Part shown: positions 40,611 through 64,000 of the stretch, piece by piece | Layout of the letters: each line of letters begins with the position of its first letter | How positions within the stretch are numbered: the stretch's first letter is position 1 | Sequence record: OQ417966.1 | Source: Mycobacterium phage prophiT36-1 | Strand: one strand, 5' to 3' | DNA length: 64,000 nt | Translations under genes and position numbers: made by a program | Notes under the pieces: generated by a model | What the model was told of the DNA's origin: nothing | Database searches by the model: none | Seen by the model: the letters and a program-made list of their open reading frames with translations, nothing else

Positions 40611-40669
40611 CCAACTATTCACTGCGAGTGAATCGTTCGGCTGCACCCCTGCTCGGCACGCTACGCGCC

Positions 40670-41176
40670 ATGACCACACCCGCCTCGGAACCTCTCCAGC
40701 CGTCCGCCCCTGCACCGGCCGAACCGGCAGCAGCCGGCGCCGTCGAACAAGATGTCATCGCGCCTAATACGCAGGTAGTCACTGAACCAGCTGCCCACGG
40801 TGATGCGCTGCCAGCGGTCCGGGCCAGTACCGAGATAGCGACGCCCAGCGGGTGGCCGCACGAGTTCCTGGAGTTTGGTGGCGACAAGCTCGAAATCCGG
40901 GTTCCCACACCACAGGCCATGTCGGCGCTATCGCTGGGAATGGGCAAGTACGTTCCGGCGAAGATGAAGAACGAGATCAGCGGCCTGTTCATCGCCCGGC
41001 ATCTGTCGGAAGGCACCTACGAGCACGTCTACTCGCGGTTGATGAACCCGGACGACACCGGATACAACGCCAACACCATCGGGGAGCTGATCGGCGCGCT
41101 GCTCAACGAAGGTGTCGAGCAATTCGAAAAGGTATCGAAGGCACCGGAAGCGGTGAACAGCGAGGCCGAGAAGTAG
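40670..41176 (+). CDS. tail assembly chaperone or small major-tail-like protein immediately upstream of TMP
   Basis: Position directly before the tape measure gene; no convincing -1 frameshift partner found. Confidence 0.4.
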   Translation: MTTPASEPLQPSAPAPAEPAAAGAVEQDVIAPNTQVVTEPAAHGDALPAVRASTEIATPSGWPHEFLEFGGDKLEIRVPTPQAMSALSLGMGKYVPAKMKNEISGLFIARHLSEGTYEHVYSRLMNPDDTGYNANTIGELIGALLNEGVEQFEKVSKAPEAVNSEAEK

Positions 41177-41201
41177 CACCCCACCTCGCTAGCTTGAGCC
41201 G

Positions 41202-46793: not shown

Positions 46794-48229
46794 TGGCCTA
46801 CCGCGGATACTTCGCCCTCAACGGCGTGGAGATCGCCAACAGCTCCCGGGTGATCGCGCACCTGGGCCAGGATGTGCCAACCAGCGACATCGGTGTCTTT
46901 GGCGACGATCCGAGCACCGACTGCGCGCTCATCGAATCCACCGAATTTCCGGGGTTCTACGAAATCCCCGACAGCTCCACCGAAGTGAGCCCCGGCCTGC
47001 TCACGCCGCCCAACGGTGCCCGCCGGCTGGGGCCCGGCCTGTTTGAGATCAACGGCACGTGCTGGGGTCCGATCGCGTTCTGCGGCTCGTGCTCCACAAT
47101 CGTCACCTACGATGATTCGTGGCCAGGTCTTCGGGAATTCCTGGGCGACAACATCTATCGACCCGAGCTGGCACCGTGGTACAGCACCGAACTGCCCGAA
47201 TCCACAGAGTTCGGTGGCGTATGGGTGATGAAAATCGACGGCCTGGGAGCAACACCGGTAGAACGGCCCATCACCCAGATGACCGGATCAGGGGCCGCGG
47301 CCGGCCCGCATAGAGACCTGTCACGCACCCTCACGTTCGAGGCGCTGATGATCGCCTGCACTCACGCTGGCGTCGAGTTTGGCATGGACTGGTTGTCCTG
47401 CATCCTGCGGGACACCATCGACGACAACACCAGCGTTCTGCGTTATCTTGCTGCCAGCCCAGCGCATTCGGGCGTCGATCCGGCATCGTTGGTGCGTGAG
47501 GTGCATGGCGTTGTCTTGACCAAAGAGCCGCGGATCATCTCGGAATACAACACCCAGGCCGGCCAGCATCACCAAGCCAACCTGTATCGCATCAGCTGGG
47601 AAATGACGGTGCTCTCGCCCTATGCCTACCTGCCGCAGGTAAGGGTGCCGGTCGACTGGGACGAGATCACCAGGCAGCCGGTCAACTGGGTTCACGCTGC
47701 CGACTGCGAAAAGCCCTCCACCTGTTCGGACATGCCGGTGCTGTTCTCCGCTGACTGCGTGCCCGAGGAGATCGCGATCCTGGACACTCCGCCGCCGGTG
47801 TGCGGCGGGTGCCTGCCGGTCGGCGAGATCGACAAGTACAGCTTCCGTATCCCCACCATGGATTACGCGTTCCGTTGCCGGGACACCGCGGTCAGTATCG
47901 CGATCCGTAACCTCGGCGGGACGCCGTTGACACTGCAAGCGTTTCTGCGGGTGTGCGGCACCGATGTGCGCTGCGAAGACAACCGATTCCCGCTGCAGGT
48001 ATCGGGTCTGCCACCACTGACAGAGCTGGTCCTCGACGGCATCTCGGGGCGCTACTGGGCCATCTATGACGACCGCAAGCACCGCGCCGTCGGGATCGTC
48101 GGCACCCCCAACGGCGCGCCCTGGCGACCACCACGTATCGACCGCGAAACATGCTGGGATTTCATCGTTCAAACAGCTAGCACCTCGCAATTCGAGGTCA
48201 CCATGACACTCACCGATCGGGAGCCGTGA
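46793..48229 (+). CDS. minor tail protein (distal tail / baseplate-like)
   Basis: First gene after TMP, ATGA coupling. Confidence 0.6.
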   Translation: MAYRGYFALNGVEIANSSRVIAHLGQDVPTSDIGVFGDDPSTDCALIESTEFPGFYEIPDSSTEVSPGLLTPPNGARRLGPGLFEINGTCWGPIAFCGSCSTIVTYDDSWPGLREFLGDNIYRPELAPWYSTELPESTEFGGVWVMKIDGLGATPVERPITQMTGSGAAAGPHRDLSRTLTFEALMIACTHAGVEFGMDWLSCILRDTIDDNTSVLRYLAASPAHSGVDPASLVREVHGVVLTKEPRIISEYNTQAGQHHQANLYRISWEMTVLSPYAYLPQVRVPVDWDEITRQPVNWVHAADCEKPSTCSDMPVLFSADCVPEEIAILDTPPPVCGGCLPVGEIDKYSFRIPTMDYAFRCRDTAVSIAIRNLGGTPLTLQAFLRVCGTDVRCEDNRFPLQVSGLPPLTELVLDGISGRYWAIYDDRKHRAVGIVGTPNGAPWRPPRIDRETCWDFIVQTASTSQFEVTMTLTDREP

Positions 48230-48232
48230 GCC

Positions 48233-49270
48233 GTGCCGGTCATCAGCACTGAACAGATCGTGTCGCTGCGCACCGCCAGCGGCAAGCAACTCGACCAATT
48301 CCTGGCCACGCATCAGGAGTCGTTGAAATGGACCCGCGAGCAGCGGCAAGTATCGGTGCTGGAAATGACCGTGCCGAGCGTGATCGACGCCGGCCGCATG
48401 GACATCACACCGTGGCTGCATTGGATCGACGTGTTCGATGATCAGGGCCGCGAGCTGTACTGGTCAGGACCGATCCAGCGGGTCTCAGCTAGCCGCTCAC
48501 GAACCTCCATTTCCGCGCGGGATATGTCGGCGTTGATGACCCGCACCCGCTGCCCGTTGACGAAAAACTGGGATGCAGCCGACCCCTCGAAGATCGCGGG
48601 CGAGCTGTGGGCCGCGATGATCGCCCACCACGGACTGAACACTCGAGCCATCGAACGCGTGGACCCGCGCGGCGACCACTTCGATTTCGAGGCTATCGCC
48701 GACGAGCAGATGATGAGTGCGACGTTCGATCGGCTCGTCGGGCTGGGGCTGCACTGGACAGTCGTGGGCGGTGTGCCCATCCTGGGCCCGGCCCAGCTCA
48801 AATCGATTGTGGCGCTCGGCGAAGACGACTTCACGGGCGGGGAGTTCTCGATCGTGCGTGATGGCAGCCAGACCTACAACGATGTCCTACTGCGCGGCGG
48901 CGACAACCTGGCTCGCGCCAGCGTGCCGATGGGCGGTCTGCGGTTGCAGACGATCAACAACATCGACGACATGTTCGGTGTTTCCAACGTCGACCGCGCA
49001 GCCAAGCAATACGTGCGCTACACCGGGGCCATCAAAGACACCTTGGTGCTCTCTGACGGTGCCGTGCTGCATCCTGATGCTCCGCTAGACATTTCGCAGC
49101 TGATCCCGTCAGTACGGTTCAACGTCGAAGCACTGGGGGTGCTGCAACTGATGGAACTGCAGAACGTCACAGTCACCGGTGACGGAGCCGTGGCGCTCAC
49201 GCTGGCTTCGGTCAACGACGACCTACCGGAACTGGTGGAGATCGCCCAGAAAGGGGCGGTGACACAGTGA
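48233..49270 (+). CDS. minor tail protein
   Basis: Second gene after TMP. Confidence 0.55.
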   Translation: MPVISTEQIVSLRTASGKQLDQFLATHQESLKWTREQRQVSVLEMTVPSVIDAGRMDITPWLHWIDVFDDQGRELYWSGPIQRVSASRSRTSISARDMSALMTRTRCPLTKNWDAADPSKIAGELWAAMIAHHGLNTRAIERVDPRGDHFDFEAIADEQMMSATFDRLVGLGLHWTVVGGVPILGPAQLKSIVALGEDDFTGGEFSIVRDGSQTYNDVLLRGGDNLARASVPMGGLRLQTINNIDDMFGVSNVDRAAKQYVRYTGAIKDTLVLSDGAVLHPDAPLDISQLIPSVRFNVEALGVLQLMELQNVTVTGDGAVALTLASVNDDLPELVEIAQKGAVTQ

Positions 49271-51633
49271 GCCGAGTTCCAGGCCAGGCGCCGCGCACCG
49301 ACCAGGAGTGGACACGCGAGGTGGCGCAGCGGCTCTCAGCACTCGAAAATCCGCGAACAATCCGGGTGGGGAAGTGGGTTCTGTCCGCGGTCGCCGGCCG
49401 ACTCATGGCGACCAGCCCAGGTGAAGTGCTTGAAGTCGGGCAGGAACCGACGCCCGTTGCGGTTGATTTGAGCCAGCGCGGCAGCCAGGTTTCTGAGCAG
49501 GAGATCGCCGAGGCCGTCACGGGCGGCAACGGTAAGACGTTCACCTCGATCACCGACTGGTTGACGGCGAAGTGGTCGGAGCTCTCGAGTACGACGACGA
49601 ATGCGAATACCGGCCTCGGGAACTGGACGTCATGGCTCACCGGGGGTTCGTGGGCCAACGTCGGTGCCGCGGTGTCCGACTTCCTGAGCACCAAGAGCAC
49701 CGCGGCGACTGCCGGAACCAATGCGGCTACGGGGCTGGGCAATTGGACATCGTGGCTCAGTGGTGGATCGTGGGCGAGCATTGCGGCATCTGTTGCTGAT
49801 TTCCTGGGGACGAAATCAACTGCGAACACCGCGGGCACGAATGCCGCAACCGCGATGGCCGACGCGAGCGCCGCGTCGTCGGCGGCCAGTGCCGCGCAGA
49901 CCAGCGTTCAGAGCACGATCGATGCCGGTATTAACGCGATCCGCAACACCCCTGGTGTGGCCGGTCAGGCGGTCGAAGGATTGGCCGAGGCGCTGGCGTC
50001 GATCCCGACCCAGCTGTTCAATCAGTTCGGCGGCAACAATGTGCCCCGGGCATCCCAGGAGCAGGCTAACGCGGCGATGGCTTCGCTGGTCAACACGGTC
50101 AATTCCCAAGGCGCGGCGATCAATGCGCTGCAAAACATCCTCTCCGATGTCGGCGGATTCAGTGCCTCGATCACGTTCCGCCCGGCGGAAACCACCGTAT
50201 TCACCGGTCCGGGCACTGCGCCGTGGACACCTCCGGCATGGGCGGCAGGTGGGTACGGCGAGTATGTGATCGCGCCGGCCGCCGGTGGTGGCGGTGCCGG
50301 TGAAGGCGGCTCGGGAGCATTCGGTGTCGGCGGCTATCCCGGAGCGTGGGCCACCGGCACCTTCCCCATCGAGGCTGGGGCGTATTCGATCTTCGCCGGC
50401 GGCGGCGGTCTGGGCGGGCAAGACGAGGGTTTGGGCTTCGGCGATAACGGCAGCGCTGGTGATACCTCGACGATCACCAGCCCCACCGGCACACCGGTGG
50501 CCACCGTGGCGGGCGGCGCAGGCGGTGAGGGGGCGCGGCGCGGCGGCAGCGGGCAGAACGGGAAAACCATCAGCCCCCAAACCTTGTCGGCGTTCGGGGA
50601 GGCCTTCACCGCCGGATCCGGGGGTACCGGCAACGCGGGCACCGGTGGCGTGGCCGGTGGCGGTGCGGGCGGTAACGGTGGCCTGTTCGGCAACTACACC
50701 AAGGGTGGCACCGGCGGCCCGGCCAAGATCTGGATGCGCGCCCGCGCACCAATCCCGCCGCAGTTCACCGCCATGGGCACCCTGATCTTGCCCACACTCA
50801 AACTCAACACCGGGGTCGCCCAAACCGATTCGATGACCGCGGCCGGGCAGTGGCGCACCATCGCGCCCGGCGGGGCGGCCGGCGGCTACATGCTGATCAT
50901 CCGCGCCAATTCGGGGTTTACCGATTACGTCTATCTGTGGATCTGGGATGTCTCTGGTGTCACGCACTACGAGCTGGGCCGGGTGGCTTCCGGGGTCAAG
51001 TCCGCGTGGAAGACCGGCACGGTCGGGGCGGCGATCCCGTTCAACGCTTTCACCCTGACCTCCGATGCCGCCCGCACCTTCACCGTCGGGGTCAACGGGA
51101 CCGCGTTCGACTCCTACAACGACTCCGGTGCCACTTCCCTGATGGGCGCGGCCTACCGCTCCGGCGGCTGGGCATCCTCGGACCCGGCGCTGCCCGGCTC
51201 GATGTCACAGTTCGCGTTCCTGGACACCGGCACCCCCGCCCGCATCGTTTCAGGCACCATCGCGACCGCCCAAGGCACCAACAGCACCGCCGCCTACGTG
51301 GACCTGACCACTCCCGGGCCTTCGGTCACTCTGAACGTGCCCGCCAGCGGTGAGGTCACTATCGATGTGTCGGCCGCGTACTCCTCCGGCGGGGCTGCCG
51401 CGCAAACCGGATACATGGGCTGTGCGCTCTCGGGCGCCAACACCCGCGCCGCAACCGATGCCACTGCCGCCTACGGGCGCACCGTCACCGCCGGACTGTT
51501 CGGCACCCTGGCGCGCCGCATCCACCTGACCGGCCTGACCCCGGGCACCACCACGTTCAAAGCCGTCTACAAAACCAGCACCAGCACCGCGACCTTCTCC
51601 GACCGCCACATCATCGTCGAACCCAAACCCTAA
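49267..51633 (+). CDS. Glycine-rich minor tail protein with internal about 40-aa tandem repeat
   Basis: GGAGGEGARRGGSGQNGK...GGTGNAGTGGVAGGGAGGNGG; repeat TGLGNWTSWL(T/S)GGSWA...DFL(S/G)TKST at nt about 49590-49860. Confidence 0.65.
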   Translation: MSRVPGQAPRTDQEWTREVAQRLSALENPRTIRVGKWVLSAVAGRLMATSPGEVLEVGQEPTPVAVDLSQRGSQVSEQEIAEAVTGGNGKTFTSITDWLTAKWSELSSTTTNANTGLGNWTSWLTGGSWANVGAAVSDFLSTKSTAATAGTNAATGLGNWTSWLSGGSWASIAASVADFLGTKSTANTAGTNAATAMADASAASSAASAAQTSVQSTIDAGINAIRNTPGVAGQAVEGLAEALASIPTQLFNQFGGNNVPRASQEQANAAMASLVNTVNSQGAAINALQNILSDVGGFSASITFRPAETTVFTGPGTAPWTPPAWAAGGYGEYVIAPAAGGGGAGEGGSGAFGVGGYPGAWATGTFPIEAGAYSIFAGGGGLGGQDEGLGFGDNGSAGDTSTITSPTGTPVATVAGGAGGEGARRGGSGQNGKTISPQTLSAFGEAFTAGSGGTGNAGTGGVAGGGAGGNGGLFGNYTKGGTGGPAKIWMRARAPIPPQFTAMGTLILPTLKLNTGVAQTDSMTAAGQWRTIAPGGAAGGYMLIIRANSGFTDYVYLWIWDVSGVTHYELGRVASGVKSAWKTGTVGAAIPFNAFTLTSDAARTFTVGVNGTAFDSYNDSGATSLMGAAYRSGGWASSDPALPGSMSQFAFLDTGTPARIVSGTIATAQGTNSTAAYVDLTTPGPSVTLNVPASGEVTIDVSAAYSSGGAAAQTGYMGCALSGANTRAATDATAAYGRTVTAGLFGTLARRIHLTGLTPGTTTFKAVYKTSTSTATFSDRHIIVEPKP

Positions 51634-51662
51634 GACCGCACCGCGAAAGGCATAGAGAAATC

Positions 51663-51974
51663 ATGGGATTCACCAACGCGACACCGCTGAAACAGACCAC
51701 CTACCAGGCCATGTACTTCGACGGCACACCGCAGAGCGCCGCGCAGACCTTGATGATGATCGACTCGCTGCTGACCGCCCGCAAGCTGCACTACGGCATC
51801 ATCCACGGTTCCCAAGAAGTAGAAAACCCCACCGCCTGGCGTATCCAACTCGCGCGCCGCGACGGCTCAGCCGAACTCATCGCCCTCGCCGACCGCTGGA
51901 TCGTCGTTTCCTCGACCGGCCAAATCCGCGTACTCACGCCCGCCGACTACCGCGCCGAATTCGCCGTTGAGTGA
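51663..51974 (+). CDS. hypothetical tail-region protein
   Basis: ORF in array. Confidence 0.45.
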   Translation: MGFTNATPLKQTTYQAMYFDGTPQSAAQTLMMIDSLLTARKLHYGIIHGSQEVENPTAWRIQLARRDGSAELIALADRWIVVSSTGQIRVLTPADYRAEFAVE

Positions 51975-52234
51975 CCGGCGCCGGCACCGCTGCTCGCTAC
52001 CCTGCCGCCATGGACGGATACCTGCGCGGTTCGGTGAAGACCCACCCGGACTATCCCGAGAACCCGACCATCGCGCTGCGCAGCGTGTTTGACGACGACG
52101 ACGCCACCGGCTGCAACTCGTGGCTGGTCGTCTCGGCGAGTTCTGGGGCGCTCTATCGCACGGAGTCGTTCGTCGCCGACTGGCCCGACGCAGACGGGCT
52201 GACGTTGACGACCACGCTCACCCCGGCTCCGTAA
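51971..52234 (+). CDS. hypothetical protein
   Basis: GTGA overlap. Confidence 0.35.
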   Translation: MTGAGTAARYPAAMDGYLRGSVKTHPDYPENPTIALRSVFDDDDATGCNSWLVVSASSGALYRTESFVADWPDADGLTLTTTLTPAP

Positions 52235-52244
52235 CCTCACGGTC

Positions 52245-52886
52245 GTGGCGATCACGGAGTACACCGAGCCGAACGTCTGCATCGGGGAGAACCTCACCAC
52301 CGATGCGGCCGGTCAGCTGCGGCTCCAACCGTGGGCGCTGGTACGCCCTGTGGTCGATATCCGGGCACTCTCGGGCGGTGACGGTTCGATCATCGCGCCG
52401 CTGATCGCGCTGCCCGGCAAGCTGCTGATCGACCAGAAAGCGTCCTGGCGCAACGATTCCCCGCTGCCGCAGATGGTGCTGATCCGCGTTACGCGCGGGC
52501 CGCGGTCATGGCTCACCTCGAACCCGAACGCTATCCAATTCCGCGACCGGTGGACTACTGCGATCGACACGGATGCCGCGATGCCGGTGACCACCGGCAT
52601 CTACAACTCCCAGTGCGGATCGGCCTGGGACTTGGGAACGAACAGCGTCGCGGAGCCCAACCCTGGACGACAGTGGCGATGGGCCGACGCCAACAGCATG
52701 GACGAATGGGTGGGCCCGATCGATCCAGGAGCCACGCTCAACCTCTGGTACCGCTGCTATGTGTGGACCCCGCCGCCGTGGTCGAACAACGCGAACAAGA
52801 ATCAGCCGCAGCACGAGGCCCGCGCGAACTGGACGCGCATTGAAATGCGGGCCTTCCCGCAGCAGGGAAATGTGGTGACCGGATGA
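52245..52886 (+). CDS. minor tail / fibre-like protein (paralog of the next gene)
   Basis: C-terminal similarity with the next gene (ARANW/AQARW endings, W-rich). Confidence 0.5.
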   Translation: MAITEYTEPNVCIGENLTTDAAGQLRLQPWALVRPVVDIRALSGGDGSIIAPLIALPGKLLIDQKASWRNDSPLPQMVLIRVTRGPRSWLTSNPNAIQFRDRWTTAIDTDAAMPVTTGIYNSQCGSAWDLGTNSVAEPNPGRQWRWADANSMDEWVGPIDPGATLNLWYRCYVWTPPPWSNNANKNQPQHEARANWTRIEMRAFPQQGNVVTG

Positions 52887-53482
52887 GCATCAAGGTGTGC
52901 ACCTCGGAGTACATGCTCTCCACCGTCAACGGGCTCGACATGAGGCGAAACTGGTTCCCCAGCATCGTCGCTGAGCGATTCCTGCAGTCCAAGAAGGACG
53001 GGCAGATCAGCCGATCACCCGACCCGGTGACGATGATCGACGGTGATCTCACCTACTTCAACAACACCCCAGACCCGGTGTACATCACCGTGCAAGTCAT
53101 CCGGGCTCCCCGCAGCATCGTTGCCCAAAACCCGGGCACCGTAGTGATTCACGACGCCTGGTCCTGGGCTGTCGGCAAGTCGCCCACAGCTGACTTTCCC
53201 TCGGTAATCCAGGACTCATTCGGCGGCAGGGGACAGGTGGACCGACCCGAAAACGCCGCGGACAAGCTGCTGTTCGGACGGTTCTTCGCTGACGGAGACA
53301 GCTCCCAAGCCTGGGTCAACGTCGGCCAACTCGACGCGCAGGATTCCCTGCACTTCCGATACCTGGCCGCTGTCCAAACCCCAGGCGTATGGACCACCCC
53401 TTCAGAGTTCGAGCCGCGCTGGGAAGCACAAGCCCGCTGGACTCGACTGCTGGCGTTCGCGATGCCGATTGGTTCGGCATGA
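52883..53482 (+). CDS. minor tail / fibre-like protein (paralog)
   Basis: ATGA coupling; paralogy with 52245-52886. Confidence 0.5.
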   Translation: MSIKVCTSEYMLSTVNGLDMRRNWFPSIVAERFLQSKKDGQISRSPDPVTMIDGDLTYFNNTPDPVYITVQVIRAPRSIVAQNPGTVVIHDAWSWAVGKSPTADFPSVIQDSFGGRGQVDRPENAADKLLFGRFFADGDSSQAWVNVGQLDAQDSLHFRYLAAVQTPGVWTTPSEFEPRWEAQARWTRLLAFAMPIGSA

Positions 53483-54759
53483 GCGAGCACTTCGGGATCG
53501 TCGGCGACGCCATAGCTCCGCTGCCCTGGATGCAGATGCGCCACCTCAAAGGCGCCGAAGTGCCTTCGGTGTCAAAGTCTTACGACACATCAGGTGGCGG
53601 CAACAAGAACGACGCAGTCCACGCTGTCGTGGTGTCCTGGACGAACAACACACCGATTCCGCAATCGGTCTACGGCATGGTGACCCGGGAGGGCGCCCAG
53701 GTGACGCTGCAGGCACGGTCCCGCGGCTACCTGCTCACCCTCCACGGCCGCGATATCACCGCAACCGCGGCGGTGCCGACATCGTGGGACATGGCCGAGG
53801 TCAGCAAGTTCGGTATCGGCGGCGACATCGGTAAGGGCGGAATCCTGGCTCTCGGCACCGGATTCGGGGTCAGCGAGATCCGGCAGAACTCCGCCAGCAT
53901 CCCGTTGATGCCGCACTGGACCGGCTGGAGCATCGTGGCACCCGGGCAGACGTTCCACGGCCGGGTGGAGGTGCGGTTCCGGACGGACTTCTGGGAGAAC
54001 ACCTCGATCGATGGCGGTGACCAAAACACCGAGTCGGGCTTCATCTCCGGCGGCACCCGACTGGATCTCTACGCCACCCCGGTCATCGGTGAGCCACCTG
54101 TCTTGTCGACCCCCACGGTTGTCGGGATAGAGCACTCGGTGAACAACACCTTCCACACCGACGTCGATGTGCCCGCGGGCACTGCCTTAGGCGACATGCT
54201 TATTGCGGTGGTATCCAACCAGTTCGGGCTCATCAGCGACATCAAGCCCGAGCAGACCGGCTGGACACAGGTCCACGCCCGCGACGGCGGCTGGGAAGAC
54301 GCCCACATGAAGGTGTACGTACGGGCCGCCAAAGCCACCGAACCGGCCTCCTACACGTTCGGCAACGGCCTACTGGCTGAGTCCATCGCACACCTGATCA
54401 CCGTGCGCGGCGCCAACCAGCTGCTCGATGAGGGCTGGCAGTTCGCATCATCGCTACGCAAGAGATGGTGGGAACGCTACGACGGCCATATCTGCCCATC
54501 GATCGACCGCGCCGGACAACTGCTGCTGTTGGTGTCCTACATTCCGCACAACGCGCTCCAAACCACATTCACGCAGACCGTGCCGGCCGGGACGACGGAA
54601 CTGGAGAATGTGGACGGGAACCTGGCATGCAGCGCCGTGGCCGCGCTGCCGAACCCGCCGCGGCCGACAGGGGAGCGCACGTTCGTCGCATCAGAGGAAC
54701 CGTCCTGGGCCGGCCGCTCCATCACGGCATCGATCCTGGTGCCCGGCAAGTTCCAGTAG
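53479..54759 (+). CDS. minor tail protein
   Basis: ATGA coupling; 426 aa. Confidence 0.55.
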   Translation: MSEHFGIVGDAIAPLPWMQMRHLKGAEVPSVSKSYDTSGGGNKNDAVHAVVVSWTNNTPIPQSVYGMVTREGAQVTLQARSRGYLLTLHGRDITATAAVPTSWDMAEVSKFGIGGDIGKGGILALGTGFGVSEIRQNSASIPLMPHWTGWSIVAPGQTFHGRVEVRFRTDFWENTSIDGGDQNTESGFISGGTRLDLYATPVIGEPPVLSTPTVVGIEHSVNNTFHTDVDVPAGTALGDMLIAVVSNQFGLISDIKPEQTGWTQVHARDGGWEDAHMKVYVRAAKATEPASYTFGNGLLAESIAHLITVRGANQLLDEGWQFASSLRKRWWERYDGHICPSIDRAGQLLLLVSYIPHNALQTTFTQTVPAGTTELENVDGNLACSAVAALPNPPRPTGERTFVASEEPSWAGRSITASILVPGKFQ

Positions 54760-54778
54760 TTGCGCCTCGGAGGTTCAC

Positions 54779-55129
54779 ATGTACGACCCGCCAGACAGTT
54801 TCGACGACATGCTCGGTGACGCGGACCTCGTCCCGCAGACGGGCCCGTTCGTCCCGCTCGAAGTCCCCGGTGTCGGGGTCGTCAGGGCGCGCCGGCCGAT
54901 GCCCAACGCCGTGCCGGTGCTGGCCATGTCGGTGAACGCCAAGATCGATGTTGTCGACAAGCAGGGCTACCTGACCTTGTTCCTGCAGAATCACCTGGAA
55001 TCCGGTGAGCACGAACGCATCTTGGTCACCATGATGGGCGGCGAACTGCCGGCCGACAGCATGGGCAGGGTTGCCCGCGCGATAGCGACATGGGGCACGG
55101 CCCGCCCTACCTTGCCGTCATCACGCTAA
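54779..55129 (+). CDS. hypothetical tail-region protein
   Basis: ORF in array. Confidence 0.4.
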   Translation: MYDPPDSFDDMLGDADLVPQTGPFVPLEVPGVGVVRARRPMPNAVPVLAMSVNAKIDVVDKQGYLTLFLQNHLESGEHERILVTMMGGELPADSMGRVARAIATWGTARPTLPSSR

Positions 55130-55134
55130 GTGTG

Positions 55135-55461
55135 ATGGCGGCTACTCACTGGCGGGCGATTCGGACCCGGATGCGGGGCGACGGTATCGCTGATCCGATG
55201 CGGCAGTTGCCGCACATGCACGCACTGATCGACGAAGCCGAGAAGGTGTGGCTGGAGGCCCTGCACACCGGCAACGAGGAAAAGGACAAGCAAGAGCGCG
55301 AGCAGCTGTTGGACCGGCTGTATGCGCCGACCACAGACGACGCCGAGACGCTGAACGGCGACGGATACCAAGCCAAACGCACGCCGCCGCCCGGGTTTGA
55401 AGATCCGGCCGAGGTCGAGGCCAACTTCGATGCGGTCGCGCGGGCTTTCGGCGGCCGGTAG
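55135..55461 (+). CDS. hypothetical protein
   Basis: ORF in array; start uncertain (GTG 55132 or ATG 55135). Confidence 0.35.
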   Translation: MAATHWRAIRTRMRGDGIADPMRQLPHMHALIDEAEKVWLEALHTGNEEKDKQEREQLLDRLYAPTTDDAETLNGDGYQAKRTPPPGFEDPAEVEANFDAVARAFGGR

Positions 55462-55490
55462 TTGCACGCCGCCGCCTTAGCCTGCCCGGC

Positions 55491-55904
55491 ATGGCGAAGG
55501 TGGTCCCGTATCTCGACACGTCGGCCCCGCGCGGCCAGCGCCTCGCACCGGAGATGCGTGAGGAGATAGCCGAAGCCGCGCCGTCGACCCTGAACGATGG
55601 CGCGGTCAAGACAGCGAAGCTGGCCGAAGGAGCAGTCACCGAACTGAAACTGGCTGCCGGAGCGGTTACTTCTCCCAAGATCGCGTCGAAGGGCGTCAAG
55701 GCCGTCAACATCGACGACGCTGCCGTTGGCACACCCCAGCTGGCCGCTGGTGCTGTCACCGCAGCCAAGGCCGGCGTCGGTGTTGTCACCGCCCACGACA
55801 GCGCAGGCAACGCCATCAAGCTCGACGCAGTGCCCATGACCTCGACCGACTACACAGCGCTGACGACCAAAGAACCCAACGTCCTCTACCTGCTGAGCGA
55901 CTGA
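55491..55904 (+). CDS. minor tail protein with GAVT repeats
   Basis: Repeats AEGAVTELKLAAGAVTSPKIA...AAGAVTAAKAGVGVVT. Confidence 0.5.
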   Translation: MAKVVPYLDTSAPRGQRLAPEMREEIAEAAPSTLNDGAVKTAKLAEGAVTELKLAAGAVTSPKIASKGVKAVNIDDAAVGTPQLAAGAVTAAKAGVGVVTAHDSAGNAIKLDAVPMTSTDYTALTTKEPNVLYLLSD

Positions 55905-56602
55905 TGCCCGGTATCTACCTCGGCGGCACCGCTATCAAGGCAATGATGCTCGGCGAGAAGGCCATCACCCGGGCGTATCTCGGCGAAACCCTGGTGTGGT
56001 CAGCGAACCGAATCCGCGACGACTTCAACCGCGCTGACGGCGATCTCGGCGTCAACTGGGTGATCAGCCCCAGCATCGACGGCTATAAGCCCAGTGTGGT
56101 CGGCAATGTGTGCCGCCTCGGAGTGCCGGACGGGCTGCTCTCGCTGCAGCTGAACGGCGCTCACGCCCGCTACGTCGCCACGCTGGACCGCGACGACGGC
56201 TATGTGGAGTTCCGCATCGGCAGCCAGGGTTCAGGGCCGAGCCTAACCGGTGACCTGTGTAGAACCACGATCCTGGGGCGCGGGTCCAACAATGCTGTCA
56301 CCGGTGGCGTTGGGGTGCAAATGGATTCATCGACGCTGCGGATCGTGCGGAGGGCCGGGGTGGACACTGTGGTCAAGACGATCGGCACATTCGGCGCTGG
56401 CGATGTCATCCGGCACAACTTCGTCGGGAACGTGCACACGTTCCGCCGCAACGGCAGCCTGCTCGAAGAGTGGAACGACGAGAACGCCACCGCCCCCAAG
56501 GGAACAGGGAACCGGTCGCTGATCATCTCCGTGCAGGGTTCCAAGGATCTTCTGGGGCCACGCAGGTTTGGCCCCGCGATCGACTACGTGGAGATGGGCT
56601 GA
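55904..56602 (+). CDS. tail fibre-like minor tail protein
   Basis: Last structural ORF; ATGA coupling. Confidence 0.5.
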   Translation: MPGIYLGGTAIKAMMLGEKAITRAYLGETLVWSANRIRDDFNRADGDLGVNWVISPSIDGYKPSVVGNVCRLGVPDGLLSLQLNGAHARYVATLDRDDGYVEFRIGSQGSGPSLTGDLCRTTILGRGSNNAVTGGVGVQMDSSTLRIVRRAGVDTVVKTIGTFGAGDVIRHNFVGNVHTFRRNGSLLEEWNDENATAPKGTGNRSLIISVQGSKDLLGPRRFGPAIDYVEMG

Positions 56603-56832
56603 TGTCGGCCAAGTCCTTCGCGCAGCTCGTCAAGTATCCGCTGTTCTACATCGCGCTGGCCGGGGTCTCGTTCCGGATTGGTTGGTGTGCAGCCCATTAC
56701 GTCAGTGACCGCATGGACAACTTTGATCCAGATATCGGTAGGGGTTATGTTCTGTTGAGACGTTTGTCTTGGAGGTATGTCGATGAGCGATCGAGCGTAT
56801 CGGGTTGTTTACGGAGCTTACGCTGGGCTTGA
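56602..56832 (+). pseudogene. Putative truncated small TM (holin-like?) gene at the prophage / inserted-element junction
   Basis: ATGA-coupled ORF encodes one TM helix (LVKYPLFYIALAGVSFRIGWCAAHYV), then runs into lower-GC DNA and overlaps the start of the first recombinase. Confidence 0.3.
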
Positions 56833-58171
56833 CGCAGCCGAGGTGCAGTTTCCCGGTGTGACCCGATGCCTTCCATCTGTGGAGCAGCAGTTCGGGGATG
56901 GGTTTCCTGTGCTTGTTGATGCCGATGGTTTGCCGGTGGAGGAATCGTTGGCGTTTCTAGTATCGCGGGTAGGGGCATCGACCTCAACATTGGCGCAGTA
57001 CGCACGCGCTTTGATGGGGTTTGTCGAATTCCTGGGCTACCGGGGGGACGCCCGGCTTTTAGATGCGGCGCCCCGTGACTTGACGGCGTACCGGTTGTAC
57101 CGAACGAGGACGGGGGAATCTCCTGTCTCGGAATACTCGTTCCGGGTGGAAGCCTCGGCACTGCGACAGTTCTATGCGTGGGCAGTTGAGACTGGCCTCC
57201 TGGAGCGCTCTCCTGTCAAGCAGTTGTCACGCAATGGCTGGGACAACCTTTCTACCAACAGAATGCGTCATTCTAAGATTCGTCATGTAGATAAGTTTCT
57301 GTACGAAGCACTGCTGCGAGCGGCTGCTCAGGGCAGCGTGGATGCGGGCGTTCGGAGTGCTTCGCTACGGAATGTGGCTGCAATCAAGACATTTGCAACG
57401 ACTGGGCTTCGCCTTGGTGAGCTTGCGAGCCTTCTGACCTTCGATATTGATCATGCTGTCAGATTGCGCCGGGCGCTATCTGTGGAGATGGAGTCGATCA
57501 CAAAGTACCGAGTCAACCGCAATGCGTTGATTCCGTTCTATGCCACAGACGCGATCCGGCGGTATCGAAAACTTGAGCGCCCTAACGTGGTGGTTCGGCA
57601 TCAGCGCGCGTTGGGCAAACGTCTGGACAGTCTTTTTGTGATCAGCGATTTCAATGAATCCACTCGCCGTGTCTCCGGCCGGTGGCGAGGTCGACGGCAC
57701 CAGTATCTGCTGCATTTGGTGCCTGTTGAGCTGCGGTTGAAGGCTGTTTCAGTTAATTCAAATGGCAGCGTGGAGCCGCTGTGTTTGTTCTTGAGCGATA
57801 GCCGAGGGCAAGGGATGACGAGGTCTGGGTGGGAAGGAGTGTTCTCCGAGGTCAGTGATCAGATGATGCGCCAGGATCCGACGGATGGGCGGATCCGGAA
57901 GGTCACCCCGCATGATCTGCGGCATACGTTCGCTATCAATTATTTGAGGGCGGCCCATGGGGAACGGGCCAAAGTGCTCCAGGAGACACCGTTCAAGGAT
58001 GGGCCGCCGCTGCGTGATCCGTTGATCGATCTTCAAGAGCTGTTGGGACATGCGACCGCAGCACAAACGATGCGTTACTTGAGGTATGTCGAGGACATCG
58101 ACCGACTCATTGCGTCGGCTGTTCCCGGCCAGGGTGATGCGGGAGGGGGCGAGCATGCCCCGCAGAAATGA
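56777..58171 (+). CDS. Tyrosine recombinase A (phage integrase family)
   Basis: VTPHDLRHTFAINYLRAAHG...LLGHATAAQTMRYLRYV (HxxR...Y catalytic motifs). Confidence 0.8.
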   Translation: MSMSDRAYRVVYGAYAGLDAAEVQFPGVTRCLPSVEQQFGDGFPVLVDADGLPVEESLAFLVSRVGASTSTLAQYARALMGFVEFLGYRGDARLLDAAPRDLTAYRLYRTRTGESPVSEYSFRVEASALRQFYAWAVETGLLERSPVKQLSRNGWDNLSTNRMRHSKIRHVDKFLYEALLRAAAQGSVDAGVRSASLRNVAAIKTFATTGLRLGELASLLTFDIDHAVRLRRALSVEMESITKYRVNRNALIPFYATDAIRRYRKLERPNVVVRHQRALGKRLDSLFVISDFNESTRRVSGRWRGRRHQYLLHLVPVELRLKAVSVNSNGSVEPLCLFLSDSRGQGMTRSGWEGVFSEVSDQMMRQDPTDGRIRKVTPHDLRHTFAINYLRAAHGERAKVLQETPFKDGPPLRDPLIDLQELLGHATAAQTMRYLRYVEDIDRLIASAVPGQGDAGGGEHAPQK

Positions 58172-60059
58172 ACGCAAGGACCTCGACCGTGAGGGTGTTG
58201 ACGTTGCGCGAGGCGCCGCCGAATCTCGGCCAGCTGCGGTGGGAGTTCGCAGGCTCGCTCAACCGGGCAGGCCCGGCATGCAGGGGACCGCACAGATAGA
58301 TCCCAGCTCATACCAATGCCGCCGTCTGGCGGCCCAGCTGGCCGACCAGTGGGTTGAGATGGCGGCTGGGCGTTCGCGCTCGGTGATCGCCGTTCACCGT
58401 CAGGCGCTTGATAATTTCCTGAAATATGTTGATAAGTTGCATGATTCAGATGTGAGCCTGGATCATGATCCCGCGGTAGTAATGGCGGTGTTTGATGCAT
58501 GGGCCAAGGATCTGATTGCACTGTATGACGAAAATTCGATCATGCCGTACCGGATGTCGAACATCGTCCAGACACAGATGGCTGGTGCTGTTGTCGATGG
58601 GGTGATCACCGACGAGGTGTTGGCAGCATATGCGCGTGGGCCCGCGGTAGTCCCGAAACCGCGAGCACAACCGCTCGACGAGTTCAGTAAAGACGAACTC
58701 AAGCGCATGGTGCTGGCTGCGCGCGCACATATACGAGCAGCTCGAAAGATCAGGGAATGGGCCACGAAAACTATCCGTGCGTACGAATCTGGGAAATTGA
58801 CCCACGCGGATCAACGCTGTCTGGGCCACATGCTGCAGATGGCTACCCGAGGCGAGCGCATCGCCATACAACAGCCGTGGGATGCACATCCGGAGTCGCT
58901 GCGCGATCTCTTCCCCGACGAGGCCTGGTCGCTTTATCAGGCAACAGGCCTGAACGAGACGAAGAATTCAGTTGCCTTGTCCTGCTACCGCGCGACCCTC
59001 GCCCGGCCAATCGACCTGGTTCCTTATCGGGTATTGCTTATGGCAGGCACAGGCGTTGCAGTGGAAGAGATCTCGGCATTGACTGTGTCAGATATCGAAT
59101 GGCTCGAAGATGGCGTCAGAGTGCAGATGACCAAATCGCGAGCCCGGCGGTCAAAAGGACGGTACTTCCCAGGATCCGCTGAGCGCGGTGGCTGGGATGT
59201 TCCCGCGCTTTTGCAGTCGCTGCTGGATTTCACTGAACCGGTCCGCGCGATCGCAGGTGCACAGTTCCAGGACTGCCTGTGGCTATCGTTCAAGACAAAA
59301 AGACAGTCCCACAGTGAATCTGGTTGCGCCCCGGCTCCCGCAGACTTCGGAACCGCCAACTTGGCATCCTGGATCGATTCGGTCAAGACAGTCCACGACA
59401 TGGGCGATATTTCCACCCCACATGACATGCGGCGGATACGTAAGACAAAGGTCGCCCAGCGTGCAATTGATCTGCGTGGCGCAATGGCCGACATCGCTGG
59501 CGATGACCACACCAGCAGAGTCTTCTTCCAGCATTACGGACAGACAACATCGCTGAAAGTGTATTCAGGATCGGTAATTTCGGGCTTCCAAACCTCACTC
59601 GCTGAGGCAGTAAAGACAGGCTTCACTGCCTTCCTGGACAGACGTGCTGCGGTACCGGCGTCGATCTTGACCGAGGCGCTGCCCATCGAGCCCGCTCAGG
59701 CACACAGTCTGCGCTCCGGTGCTCACGACATGGGAGTTGTCGACTGCCAGAACCCGTTTAACTCGCCCTTTACCAAACAAGGCAAGTTATGTGGGTCCGC
59801 GCCCTTATCATGTCTGATGTGCGAGAACGCGGTTGTCTTCACCGACCATCTCCCCAACATCGTGGCGCTTATACAAGCAATGGACAACGCGAAGCGGTCA
59901 CTGGCACCCGATGACTGGATTGCCACCTGGGGGCGGCAATACGCTGCGGCGCAGGCATTGATGTCATCGGTGCCCGAACGAGCTCGCGCCGCCGCGGCGC
60001 GCAAGGCCGCTGCCGCGGTAACAGATCTGCCGGCCTGGTTGGGGCCGGGTAACCAGTGA
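58155..60059 (+). CDS. Tyrosine recombinase B (large, divergent)
   Basis: LMAGTGVAVEEISALTVSDIEW...VQMTKSRARR, PHDMRRIRKT (HxxR), FFQHYGQ (Tyr); overlaps gene A by 17 nt. Confidence 0.65.
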   Translation: MPRRNERKDLDREGVDVARGAAESRPAAVGVRRLAQPGRPGMQGTAQIDPSSYQCRRLAAQLADQWVEMAAGRSRSVIAVHRQALDNFLKYVDKLHDSDVSLDHDPAVVMAVFDAWAKDLIALYDENSIMPYRMSNIVQTQMAGAVVDGVITDEVLAAYARGPAVVPKPRAQPLDEFSKDELKRMVLAARAHIRAARKIREWATKTIRAYESGKLTHADQRCLGHMLQMATRGERIAIQQPWDAHPESLRDLFPDEAWSLYQATGLNETKNSVALSCYRATLARPIDLVPYRVLLMAGTGVAVEEISALTVSDIEWLEDGVRVQMTKSRARRSKGRYFPGSAERGGWDVPALLQSLLDFTEPVRAIAGAQFQDCLWLSFKTKRQSHSESGCAPAPADFGTANLASWIDSVKTVHDMGDISTPHDMRRIRKTKVAQRAIDLRGAMADIAGDDHTSRVFFQHYGQTTSLKVYSGSVISGFQTSLAEAVKTGFTAFLDRRAAVPASILTEALPIEPAQAHSLRSGAHDMGVVDCQNPFNSPFTKQGKLCGSAPLSCLMCENAVVFTDHLPNIVALIQAMDNAKRSLAPDDWIATWGRQYAAAQALMSSVPERARAAAARKAAAAVTDLPAWLGPGNQ

Positions 60060-62542
60060 AGACAGCACAGCTCGGTTCCCCAGGGCCAGTCGCGGCACCG
60101 GTTTCGTCCGACATCTTCGCCGACACCGAAGATGTATTCCTGTCCCGCCCGGACAGGATCGCTGGCGCCCCCGCATGCCTGTTTAGCGAGCAGGTATGGG
60201 ATGCGACGGGTGTGCTGCCTCGGCGCGCTAACATCGGCCGCCATCAATTGCGCATAATCTTTCCGCAGCATCCGGCGTGGTCGCTGCGGTCTCGTGAGAT
60301 TGCGATGACCTTGCTTAACAGCACCGACCCACGGTTGCTCGCACGATCGGTCTCCTTCGGCAGCCGTACGTTCTCCCTGGCGCATGTGCGATCGCGCTGC
60401 GAGACATACAAAACCGTGGCGGCGTGGCAGACAGCTCAAGGCTTACCTGACGACATTTCGGCCTGGGGCGCCCGCGACTGGGTAGCGATGGTCGAAGCCG
60501 AAATCGCCAGGGGCGTCAAAAACGGGACCGTGCGCAATCTCATCTGCGCTATCCGCGACCTTGTCTTCCTTGGGCCCATCTTGACTGGCGGCGGCATCGC
60601 ATCAGACCCATGGAACGGCAAGGCAACGAAACTCATCGCCAAAGGCGCCGTGGCAGGACGAACTGAAGTAATCGCCCCGGCACGTTGGATACCGCTGATA
60701 GGTGCGTGCTGGACATACATCGACACCTTCGCCGAAGACATCCTGAGTCTGCGTGTGAGCCATCAGTGTGACCTGCGCCCCGGCATGCCGGAATGGAGGC
60801 GCCGCTCGGAAGTAAGCGATGACGAGCTGCTCACCGCATACCTGGAGTCCTCCGGTGCCGTTATTCCCGCTAAGACTCGTGACGGTGGCCCGGACCCGAG
60901 CTGGTGGCGCCTATCCAAATTGGTAACCGCCGACCGGTCTTCGGCAATCTTCAAAGAAGACAGGGCAGCGGGGCGCCGCCGCAGAGAGATGGTGTATCAG
61001 GCGCTCGCCAACAACGTGGCCCGTTATGTAGCCCTCACTGCCAGTGAATTCGAAAATCTTTTGGCACAAGGGATTTCCAAGAAACTCGCGGGCAGCGATG
61101 CCGAGACCATAGTACGGATCCAGGGCGCCGACGAGATGCTCGATGCGTGGATTGACGCTGCCAGCAACCGAGTCGCAGTCACGTCCACAGAACTATGCAG
61201 CTCGCCGGGAAAGATCGCTGAAGACGACATCAATTGGGCATTGATGGAACGGATCGTGTTCCGTTCAGAAGGCGTGACTGGCCTGCTCGGGAAGGGCTGG
61301 GCAACCTCTGTCCGCCGCAGGCGCAAACTACTTAAACTCGCCCGCTCAGGCCGAGTTTTCGCATCCGCCAGTGGTGTCGGTGTGATGGGCGTACCGCGCG
61401 ACTGCACTGGCTTCACCCTAGTCGGCGCACCAGGCAGGCAGATCCCTTGGCGGGAATCAATGTCGGACTATGAGGCGCGGTGCGAACTGCGCGCCTTGCG
61501 GGCATCCTGCTATGTCTTCATCGCCGCGATAACAATGATGCGCGACAGTGAGATTCAAGATATGAAGCGAGGCTGTATACGTACCGATTACGGCGTCGCT
61601 TCTGTGAAATCACACCTTTACAAGGGGCGTTCGGGCAAGACGGTCGCACACTGGTGGATCATCGATGAAGTAGCCACAGCAATCAGAGTGCTGGAACGAC
61701 TCAGCTGTCATCCAGAGTATCTGTTCGCACGATTCGTCGACGGAGAACTCGAGAATCCTGAACCCGGTATCAGGTCAGGACTCGAGATTGCGTTTCTGCT
61801 CGATCATTTGGCGGCCACCGGCGCCCGAAGCGGGATCGCACCGGTGCCCGAGGGGCCCGTGATTTCCGCGCGAGCTCTGCGCCGTACCACTGCATCCATC
61901 AGCCGCGAACTGGGAGGCAACGAGCTTGCGGTAAGTCATCAACTCAAACACGCCATCAACTACGGCTACTCGAACGTTACCAGCGCCTATATGGCACCAG
62001 ACCCGGCATGGGCAGACCTGCTCAACACCAACAGGTCCGAGGACAACCTTGAGCACATGGTGACCGTCGTGCAGCAGTCCGCGCGCACCAGCGCCTCCTT
62101 GGCCGGTCGCGGCGGTGAGCGGCTGACCCAACAGATTGCCCAAGCGGTCGAACAGAGCGCAGGCCCTGGATACCCCGGTTCGGTGCTCTCCGATGAGGAG
62201 CTAGCCATCCTGCTGAGAAAAATCGCGCCGCAGATCCGTTTCGGACCTGCCAACGCGTGTCTGTACGACGAAGAGAACGCGCTATGTCGGCGCGATGCCA
62301 CCACCGAAATCCAGGGGCCGCTTCTGGGACTGTGTCAACCGTCGCGCTGCGCAAACTCGGTGATCGGTACCGAACACATGCCTGTGTGGGTCACCGAGTT
62401 GCAGACATTGCAGAAGACCATCGCCAGCCCCCGCGTGAGTCCGCCTCGACGACAGGCACTTTCAGAACGAATCACCGACGTACAGCACGTACTGAGCCAG
62501 CTCCAAACACGACCGCAAGCGGGCGACCATGGGCAGCCGTGA
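60056..62542 (+). CDS. Tyrosine recombinase C (very large, divergent)
   Basis: AITMMRDSEIQDMKRGCI...KSHLYKGRSGK, ARALRRTTA (RxxR in HxxR position), NYGYSNVTSAYM (Tyr); GTGA overlap with gene B. Confidence 0.6.
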   Translation: MKTAQLGSPGPVAAPVSSDIFADTEDVFLSRPDRIAGAPACLFSEQVWDATGVLPRRANIGRHQLRIIFPQHPAWSLRSREIAMTLLNSTDPRLLARSVSFGSRTFSLAHVRSRCETYKTVAAWQTAQGLPDDISAWGARDWVAMVEAEIARGVKNGTVRNLICAIRDLVFLGPILTGGGIASDPWNGKATKLIAKGAVAGRTEVIAPARWIPLIGACWTYIDTFAEDILSLRVSHQCDLRPGMPEWRRRSEVSDDELLTAYLESSGAVIPAKTRDGGPDPSWWRLSKLVTADRSSAIFKEDRAAGRRRREMVYQALANNVARYVALTASEFENLLAQGISKKLAGSDAETIVRIQGADEMLDAWIDAASNRVAVTSTELCSSPGKIAEDDINWALMERIVFRSEGVTGLLGKGWATSVRRRRKLLKLARSGRVFASASGVGVMGVPRDCTGFTLVGAPGRQIPWRESMSDYEARCELRALRASCYVFIAAITMMRDSEIQDMKRGCIRTDYGVASVKSHLYKGRSGKTVAHWWIIDEVATAIRVLERLSCHPEYLFARFVDGELENPEPGIRSGLEIAFLLDHLAATGARSGIAPVPEGPVISARALRRTTASISRELGGNELAVSHQLKHAINYGYSNVTSAYMAPDPAWADLLNTNRSEDNLEHMVTVVQQSARTSASLAGRGGERLTQQIAQAVEQSAGPGYPGSVLSDEELAILLRKIAPQIRFGPANACLYDEENALCRRDATTEIQGPLLGLCQPSRCANSVIGTEHMPVWVTELQTLQKTIASPRVSPPRRQALSERITDVQHVLSQLQTRPQAGDHGQP

Positions 62543-62927
62543 GGAAATCCGTGCCGCGATGGAACGCCTCCTAAACGGCGACGCCCAGCACACCGACGGA
62601 CGCCTAACCAAAACCAACCTTGCGGTAGAAGCCGGCGTGGGTCGGGCGACCCTCTACCGCCAGCACGACCTGATGGCCGAATGGGCGCGCCGCGTCACCG
62701 AATCAGACATCGCCCCACCCGCCGCGTCTGCCGCGGCCACGATCGCACACCTGACCCGACAGCTGGCCGACGAACGCTCCCGCCGCCGCGAATCCGACCG
62801 CATCGCCAACGGCCTGGCCTTCGTGGTAGCCGAGCTCTACCGCGCGCTAGAGGCTCGGACTCCCCCAAATTCTTCACGCGGCACGATCATCCCGATAAAC
62901 GCCAAAACGCGAAGGCGCGCAGACTAG
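62529..62927 (+). CDS. small HTH protein coupled to recombinase C (Tn554 TnpC-like position)
   Basis: LTKTNLAVEAGVGRATLYR HTH; start overlaps the end of gene C. Confidence 0.5.
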   Translation: MGSREEIRAAMERLLNGDAQHTDGRLTKTNLAVEAGVGRATLYRQHDLMAEWARRVTESDIAPPAASAAATIAHLTRQLADERSRRRESDRIANGLAFVVAELYRALEARTPPNSSRGTIIPINAKTRRRAD

Positions 62928-63065
62928 CCTGAGCCCATTTCACATACGAGCGAATGAGTTCATTGCTGATCGAAGCAGTACGGGATTCGTGCGTGGGAGC
63001 GGTGCCCGCCATGAATGGACAGCGCCGGCATCTGATCGGGACCGTTCGAGCGCGACTTACGTGGG

Positions 63066-64000
63066 GAGAGGTTACGTGGCCGACAGCCAGGCACTTCGGA
63101 AAGTTCGGTATGCAGACAAGTTCCGGGGCTATCAGGGCCAGGCTATTGCTATGGCCCGGAAGTATCGGCGCAGCTTCCACGACGAGGACGGCGCGCAGGG
63201 GCTTGATGCCGCATTGGTTTACCACCCCACGGGTACGGGCAAGACAGCCGTCATTGCCGGTCTAACGCACGCGGCACACGAAATCGGCAATGTCCTGGTG
63301 CTGACCACACGCGAAGTCATACGTGATCAACTGGTGCGCGAGCTCAGCGGTGGCCTCTTCATTGACGAGAACAAGTTCGCGCTGCCCATGCGCCACAAAC
63401 TTTCTAAGGTCTGCTTCGCGGTGGCCGAGTCCCGCCAATTACTCGGCACAGCATTAGCGTTGCATGCGGCGACGCGAAAACGCATCCCCGACCAGGTGGT
63501 CCGGGAGTTCAGTCAGCGGCAGTTCGAGCGGCTTGCACCCGAGCCCGACATCGACATCGTGAGCCACTTGCATGAACAGAACTCTGTTCTCATTCTCACC
63601 GTCCAAATGCTGGCCCGCTTGCACCGAGGCCGCACCGGGCAGTCACCGATATACGACGTCTTGCGTCAACACGTAGACCTGGTCGTCTTCGACGAAGGAC
63701 ACTACGAACCTGCACCGCGCTACAGCGAGGCAGTGCGGGATCTAGGGCGCCCTACTGTGCTGTTGACCGCTACCCCTTTCCGTAACGACCTGAAAGCTTT
63801 TCGCATCACACCCGAGCATGTCGACATTTATCGATTCACCCAGGCGGTGCAGCAGCAGCACATCAGAGAAGTCCAGATCGTGCAGCGCACACCGACACGT
63901 GACCCGGACAAGTTCTGCGCCGATGTTCTCGATTTCTGCACATCGGTGTGGGGACCCGATCCAGGGCAGTGGACCCGCCGGATCATTATTCGCTGCGACG
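63066..64000 (+). CDS. SF2 DExH-box helicase (ResIII-like N-terminal domain), 3' end off-window; start uncertain
   Basis: FRGYQGQAI (Q-motif-like), Walker A PTGTGKT, motif II DLVVFDEGHY, motif III LLTATPF; no stop before the window end; an N-terminal frameshift against ORF 62954-63265 is possible. Confidence 0.7.

Follow-up and report, generated by a model that had tools for sequence, protein, structure and literature searches.

The 64,000-nucleotide (nt) stretch of Mycobacterium phage prophiT36-1 analysed here (sequence record OQ417966.1), which we refer to as the window, ends in four overlapping genes and the start of a longer island. We interpret these genes as the recombination operon of a transposable element. 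All four genes, here called A to D, lie on the + strand, and open reading frame (ORF) coordinates are positions in the window. Gene A (56777–58171) encodes a tyrosine recombinase of ordinary size, 464 amino acids (aa) long or 462 aa from a start at 56783. It is followed by gene B (58155–60059, 634 aa) and by gene C (60056–62542), which has a GTG start and specifies a large tyrosine recombinase of 828 aa. Gene D (62529–62927) encodes a 132-aa protein with an N-terminal helix-turn-helix (HTH) and a helical tail. The frame of B is open from 58086, which yields 657 aa from the first ATG, and the form held in public databases is the 634-aa protein starting at ATG 58155. According to the ORF list the genes point in the same direction and overlap by 17 nt (A/B), 4 nt (B/C) and 14 nt (C/D), just as an earlier sequence-only reading had described for three recombinase genes and a small HTH gene.

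The block carrying these genes is sharply delimited. Near 56500 the GC content falls from about 0.65 to 0.56–0.60, and it remains low up to the window end. Prophage prophiT48-1 (OQ417964.1) is 100% identical to the window over 1–50000 and 40000–56744, with coordinates unchanged. After 56744 it continues with the rest of gp81, gp82, lysin A, lysin B and a polymorphic-toxin cassette, with no recombinase trio. Lacking the insert, prophiT48-1 thus provides the empty site. Matches to four further M. abscessus prophages (96–98%) also end at 56744, so that none of the five related prophages has the genes at this place. The boundary lies at 56744/56745 and the prophage junction reads ...GATATCGGTAGGGG|TTATGTTCTGTTGAGACG..., with the start of gene A 32 nt inside. 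The target, gene 81 (56602–56832, + strand), encodes 52 aa in prophiT48-1; here its last five codons are replaced by read-through into the element, which creates a hybrid ORF. The hexamer TAGGGG (56739–56744, + strand) is the last phage-derived sequence, as identity with prophiT48-1 stops at 56744, and is presumed to be the coupling or crossover hexamer at attL. The proposal that a mobile element of lower GC content is nested in the prophage and interrupts one of its genes is thereby borne out.

The left end of the element (56745–56776, + strand) comprises a terminal inverted repeat, TTATGTTC, a palindrome AGAC-N4-GTCT at 56758–56769 and a Shine-Dalgarno sequence GGAGG at 56771–56775. Homologues in M. 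lentiflavum and M. triplex share GG|TTATGTT...AGAC-N3-GTCT, and a homologous contig (L007) begins exactly at the element left end.

The insertion itself has been published. Amarh et al. 2023 (PMC9934374) reported prophiT36-1 as a prophage of 110,792 bp with a “peculiar large insertion”, in which a 22.5-kb segment of 18 genes stands twice in direct tandem. Among the genes of the segment are three integrase-like ones, an RpoD/TnsA-like gene and genes for a helicase and an AAA ATPase; the T36 genome carries the tandem a second time at another place. The published insertion matches the window in every respect. The window is therefore the left 64 kb of prophiT36-1 and the insertion is the same DNA as our island; the tandem arrangement reported there lies outside the reach of the window. 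The element is thus not wholly undescribed, as the earlier reading had suggested it might be, although that paper assigns it to no mobile-element family. The paper likewise gives no ends, target or distribution for the insert. What we add are these ends and the target, an SE-like family outside Gammaproteobacteria and its wide actinobacterial distribution.

The same island is present in the chromosome in hundreds of M. abscessus assemblies. Window positions 56742–64000 are 100% identical to M. abscessus chromosomal loci (L003–L005). The exact proteins D and A are indexed in 867 and 830 blocks, respectively, of the assembly collection, and in each of the two lookups the island occupied a tad-type ATPase site in all 24 long contigs read. 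The chromosomal left junction, ...GGCACGGGCGCGGG|TTATGTTC, falls where a tad-type secretion ATPase gene encodes its Walker A motif. The right end, found on contig L086, reads ...CCGTCTCAACATGTCTGTAGAGACAGCTTGACGTCCGTACATAA|CGCGGGCAAGACCACG; beyond it the ATPase gene continues (G-K-T-T). This right end was located by walking downstream with an OLD-like cargo protein, as the island exceeds the 10-kb flank of L003. The split gene is an Rv3659c-like tad/Flp-pilus ATPase gene (L003 3618–4304, L086 19145–19729), and island-bearing strains should accordingly lack that ATPase.

As a composite of two strains, the island measures about 22,756 bp. The window holds its left part (56745–64000, + strand), 7.26 kb of about 22.76 kb, the remainder lying beyond the window. 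The element thus runs off the window and does not end at 62927 with gene D, as the sequence-only reading had it, and the unit is a 22.8-kb cargo-carrying island and not a trio of about 6 kb. The element ends which that reading had proposed to look for were found, the right one from the chromosomal copy, as imperfect terminal inverted repeats, TTATGTTC and GTACATAA. Their exact terminal repeat is 8–10 bp long, and both carry subterminal GAGAC/GTCTC motifs. The chromosomal copy has CGCGGG on both flanks, its right end being ...GTACATAA|CGCGGG. GGG-N-AAG is common to the two known targets, of which the chromosomal one reads GCGCGGG|CAAGACC and the phage one GGTAGGGG|GAAGTAC.

Cargo begins within the window with the 5' part of a gene for a 1132-aa ResIII/SNF2 helicase (63076–64000, + strand; identity with L003 10548–11472), whose C-terminus matches the PADLOC candidate PDC-S71. 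Further along the island are an HTH_3 regulator, an OLD-family ATPase-TOPRIM nuclease, an Ntox33 toxin, a protein combining TnsA-N-like and sigma-70 region 4 domains, and several small proteins without family matches. We therefore regard the cargo as defence-type, with candidate anti-phage genes. No relaxase or conjugation protein was found among the cargo family matches.

Only gene A is readily recognised by family searches, with a Pfam Phage_integrase match (9e-12) and a SAM-like N-terminal domain. Genes B and C gave sub-threshold integrase matches in Pfam, and gene D, whose conserved HTH block spans G24–R44, gave weak HTH_7 and TetR_N matches. Alignments within the families nevertheless define the catalytic residues. 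Protein A contains R212, K243, H379-x-x-R382, H425 and Y434, a full RKHRHY set that is invariant among the 54 homologues aligned. Protein C, which carries an N-terminal extension of about 470 aa, likewise has a complete set (R496, K523, R606-x-x-R609, H632, Y645). R496, K523, R609, H632 and Y645 are invariant in its family, while position 606 is histidine in 53 of 55 relatives and arginine in the mycobacterial branch. The RxxR previously noticed in place of HxxR is therefore real and a trait of that branch. In the B family the first-arginine position is occupied by V, A or T, so that the full catalytic set is not present; K350-x-R352, R450, H475 and Y484 are conserved (Y484 corresponds to Y461 in the 634-aa form). 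The earlier assignment of a full R..HxxR..Y signature to each of the three genes thus stands for A and C and falls for B.

Both large proteins also carry conserved cysteines near the C-terminus, a Cys4 cluster at residues 554–579 of B (657-aa numbering) and four invariant cysteines at residues 735–765 of C, which suggests a zinc-binding module in each. PDB sequence searches with B alone or C alone returned nothing useful. AlphaFold2 models were made of both. For B (predicted local distance difference test (pLDDT) score = 69) the top seven Foldseek PDB matches are all XerH or XerD chains. For C (pLDDT = 78) the top PDB matches are XerA, XerH, Tn1549 Int and Cre; E-values were modest in both cases. 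A and C thus have the R-K-H/R-R-H-Y set and the two-domain fold of the tyrosine recombinase superfamily.

The composition of the operon closely resembles that of the SE elements, whose core operon, intA-tfp-intB-srap, encodes a pair of tyrosine recombinases, their recombinase-fold partner and a small HTH protein, and whose tfp-srap blocks have been found only in Gammaproteobacteria (Idola et al. 2023, PMC10214605). We compared A–D with profiles of SE proteins drawn from annotated records of 8–9 modules on gammaproteobacterial plasmids. Each protein matched its positional counterpart in hhalign: A matched IntA (98.4%, E 8.5e-15, 353 columns), B matched Tfp (95.6%, E 1.1e-8, 465 columns), C matched IntB (98.8%, E 4.4e-17, 546 columns) and D matched Srap (97.3%, E 2.4e-11, 120 columns). 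All twelve off-diagonal pairs were insignificant.

The correspondence extends beyond sequence profiles. In both systems four genes with overlapping frames stand in the same order at the left end and are transcribed inward, and the protein sizes are similar (545, 614, 671 and 161 aa in SE-Pda04Ya311 vs 464, 634, 828 and 132 aa here). Tfp, like B, lacks the first arginine and retains the invariant K-x-R, the second arginine, the tyrosine and a cysteine cluster. IntB, like C, combines a full catalytic set with a cysteine cluster, and the RHRY residues expected of IntA and IntB are present in A and C. The terminal inverted repeats are imperfect in both (13–19 bp in SEs), joined ends are 6 bp apart (seen here in L040), flanking hexamers are often unequal, and the cargo, judged by its family matches, includes neither relaxase nor conjugation genes. 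The systems differ in that the island family occurs in Actinomycetota, with relatives in Alphaproteobacteria, whereas SEs have been reported from Gammaproteobacteria only. The terminal sequences are unrelated, TTATGTTC or TTCTCCAGAC here vs ACCCYTACGATT in SEs, and C has a longer N-terminal region than IntB. In a tblastn search with SE Tfp against all plasmids only gammaproteobacterial genera were listed.

The island belongs to a family of considerable breadth. We scanned one genome per species with the C alignment and kept 80 loci; relatives of C are encoded in at least 119 actinobacterial species. All loci but one belong to Actinomycetota, including Mycobacterium, Mycolicibacterium, Streptomyces, Amycolatopsis, Kitasatospora, Microbacterium, Rhodococcus, Actinoplanes and others. 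The exception, L054, is a metagenome-assembled genome labelled Chitinophagaceae with the same scan statistics as the Microbacterium loci, and is probably a binning contaminant. About 70 of the 80 loci preserve the A-B-C-D order. Among 1.84 billion sequences, the C profile retrieved 1596 representatives at E ≤ 1e-3 and 382 at E ≤ 1e-30, which marks the C family as distinct and of moderate size and not as a generic integrase. Four-gene modules are also present on other actinobacterial plasmids, and related trios of the same sizes and order occur on the alphaproteobacterial plasmids Tardibacter pHSL3 (L089) and Agrobacterium pTi_EHA101 (L091). In L089 two short, overlapping tyrosine recombinase genes lie directly upstream of the trio. 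Several contigs of 6.5–7.8 kb consist of the module alone and start or stop at element ends, from which we infer multi-copy units that break assemblies.

The ends of these relatives were identified by a motif-anchored search, as a brute-force search for inverted repeats over all loci returned high-GC noise only. Whole relatives span 6.0–13.5 kb and have inverted ends. In the Streptomyces/Rhodococcus branch the left end reads TTCTCCAGAC...GTGTCTCA and the right end GTCTCATGAGACA...GTCTGGAGAA. Streptomyces jeddahensis (L040, 12544–14113) provides a natural head-to-tail junction, right end-GGATGG-left end, which gives the 6-bp spacing. This junction is followed by a 1.5-kb unit with both element ends and no recombinase genes, which may be a non-autonomous derivative inserted in tandem. 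In L033 a solitary left end, AATGGG|TTCTCCAGACACTCAG..., is located at 5271, and a complete element of 6.0 kb follows 1.25 kb downstream. Of 14 complete elements, five (4 of 13 relatives and the M. abscessus chromosomal copy) have the same hexamer on both flanks and the other nine have different ones; we therefore read the hexamers as probable coupling sequences and not as a target duplication. Such hexamers behave as coupling sequences in SEs and Tn554 (PMC10214605); unequal hexamers would also fit heteroduplex resolution of the Tn916 type.

Taken together, we propose, with a probability of about 0.8, that the region comprises the left end, with the core recombination operon, of a non-conjugative transposable island of about 22.8 kb, driven by tyrosine recombinases, and that its operon is a distant homologue of that of the SEs. 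The proposal builds on what was observed, namely the insertion boundary with its empty site, the two element ends, homology to SE proteins, shared motif patterns, synteny across the family and, in relatives, flanking hexamers that are not identical. Several points weigh against it. The SE profiles were built from 8–9 sequences only, and similarity is seen at the profile–profile level only. Similarity at the BLAST level is absent, and B and D accordingly fall outside the Tfp and Srap orthologue clusters that Idola et al. delimit by BLAST or PSI-BLAST. The B family profile matches a single SE Tfp sequence weakly (E 0.0025, 12% probability), and no ORF matching the D profile occurs in the alphaproteobacterial relatives. 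With regard to mobility, the single site in all contigs read could mean vertical inheritance and not frequent transposition, and the identical hexamers around the M. abscessus chromosomal copy also fit a simple 6-bp duplication. Finally, the window does not reach the right junction in the prophage, and the phage–element junction is in neither of the public collections queried for it.

This last point raises the question whether the junction is an artefact of assembly or of the record, or whether the genes are ancestral to the phage and were lost from its relatives. Neither the phage–element junction nor the element left end was found in viral contigs, a protein lookup returned no record of the hybrid gp81 protein, and the neighbouring tail gene is uninterrupted in 24 of 24 contigs that carry it. 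Identity with the published prophiT36-1 insertion explains both the missing junction and the uninterrupted contigs. The record's own authors report the insertion and a second copy in the same genome (PMC9934374), the break falls exactly at the terminal repeat of the element, as it does at the chromosomal site, and the insert differs in GC content from the phage. Five related prophages lack the insert, and on the empty site in prophiT48-1 we reject the ancestral-gene view; altogether, an explanation of this kind appears highly improbable.

Besides the SEs, two multi-recombinase systems with a small third or fourth protein have been described, the Tn554 family and the GInts. A Tn554-family transposon of the actinobacterial branch (Van Houdt et al. 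2012), with B as an accretion, is in our judgement unlikely. The small recombinase, the large recombinase and the small accessory protein of Tn554 all have equivalents here, the footprint is 6 bp, and the hexamers behave like coupling sequences with no obligatory duplication, as in Tn554. Tn554-like elements occur in Mycobacterium, Streptomyces and Rhodococcus. Those of actinobacteria, M. abscessus copies included, encode one short and one abnormally long (611–828 aa) recombinase plus TnpC (PMC3414803). However, Tn554 comprises the three genes tnpA, tnpB and tnpC only and has no Tfp-like gene, whereas B is conserved in the family and matches Tfp, and NCBIfam and Pfam gave no TnpB- or TnpC-type match for A–D. 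The island is set apart from Tn554 by gene content, not by sequence comparison. On this ground a plain three-gene transposon of the Tn554 type, as entertained earlier, does not account for it; the closest family is that of the SEs, which the sequence-only reading had not named. The genomic islands with three integrases (GInts, ginABCD; Bardaji et al. 2017, PMC5385486) share the overall layout, namely a 5' operon of three integrase-like genes and a gene for a small helical protein, cargo directly behind it and a short 3' end. They also have imperfect flanking repeats, defence or fitness cargo and site-specific insertion into genes. Yet A–D reached at most 10% probability against GinA–D profiles from five GInt operons, and in GInts the second gene has RHRY and the third lacks the first arginine, whereas here it is the second that lacks it and the third that is complete. 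Without a significant profile match and with the arginine-less protein in a different position, GInt membership was rejected as very unlikely. The other class named earlier, recombinase-in-trio (RIT) elements, also consists of three adjacent, overlapping tyrosine recombinase-type genes between terminal inverted repeats. The published description (PMC10214605) specifies proteins of 315–410 aa, all with the catalytic tyrosine and the full motif, together with inverted repeats of 34 bp and neither a fourth gene nor cargo. Set against it are proteins of 464, 634 and 828 aa, the missing first arginine of B, a conserved fourth gene and short repeats, and we dismissed RIT membership on size and composition as barely conceivable.

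How might the SE-like island that we propose move? By analogy with SEs and Tn554, A and C would be the two active recombinases. B would be a recombinase-fold partner without the first arginine, probably an architectural or regulatory subunit, and D a small HTH accessory protein. The SE authors regard TnpC as the counterpart of Srap (PMC10214605), and D may on the same grounds be a TnpC analogue. Together, A–D would synapse the imperfect inverted ends and join left and right ends into a circular copy with a 6-bp spacer between them. This circle would then be inserted at sites resembling GGG-N-AAG, so that the flanking hexamers would be coupling sequences and not a target duplication. We infer the circular intermediate, copy-out as opposed to excision, any strand bias and the role of each protein by analogy only; the copy-out route of SEs is unique among tyrosine-recombinase elements, and strain T36 retains a chromosomal copy of the island alongside the prophage copy (PMC9934374). 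Under the model the tandem junction should read ...GTACATAA-N6-TTATGTTC..., and the hexamer after the last right end in the prophage should be CGCGGG, from the left flank of the donor, followed by GAAGTACGG. A plain duplication predicts TAGGGG instead.

A σ70-type scan detected no consensus promoter in the 32 nt ahead of gene A. When the two ends were joined in silico with a 6-bp spacer (window 56745–56776 plus L086 19092–19161), the sequence TTGACG-18 nt-TATGTT appeared, directed into gene A. With the phage DNA that adjoins the element in the prophage the sequence is TTGATC-17 nt-TATGTT, and none arises at the chromosomal site. A promoter created by joined ends is thus a lead suggested by a consensus match.

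Outside the island, window positions 1–56744 make up the left 56.7 kb of a prophage that belongs to cluster MabL and is identical to prophiT48-1. This part encodes its own tyrosine integrase (103–1221) and a serine recombinase (18063–18677), along with a repressor/Cro/excise switch, RecE/RecT, a BrnT toxin-antitoxin pair and a tape measure protein of 1863 aa.

SEs and GInts are the least understood of the tyrosine-recombinase transposons: each depends on four proteins, transposition may proceed by copy-out, and the host range has been considered narrow. On balance, we favour the view that SE-type transposons are not confined to Gammaproteobacteria and that the island represents an ancient sister branch. 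This branch would be widespread in Actinomycetota, with its trio also on alphaproteobacterial plasmids, and would range from cargo-free, multi-copy units of 6 kb to the 22.8-kb defence island of M. abscessus, forming tandem arrays and hitch-hiking on a prophage. Such a branch would remove the host-range argument, and its many divergent sequences would help to define the conserved core of the system, an arginine-less Tfp-type protein with an invariant tyrosine and cysteine clusters in the two large proteins. The 6-kb elements would be convenient for biochemistry. For M. abscessus, the proposed element would explain both a common island of subsp. massiliense, with its candidate anti-phage genes and its disruption of the tad pilus ATPase, and the entry of that island into a prophage of phage-therapy interest.

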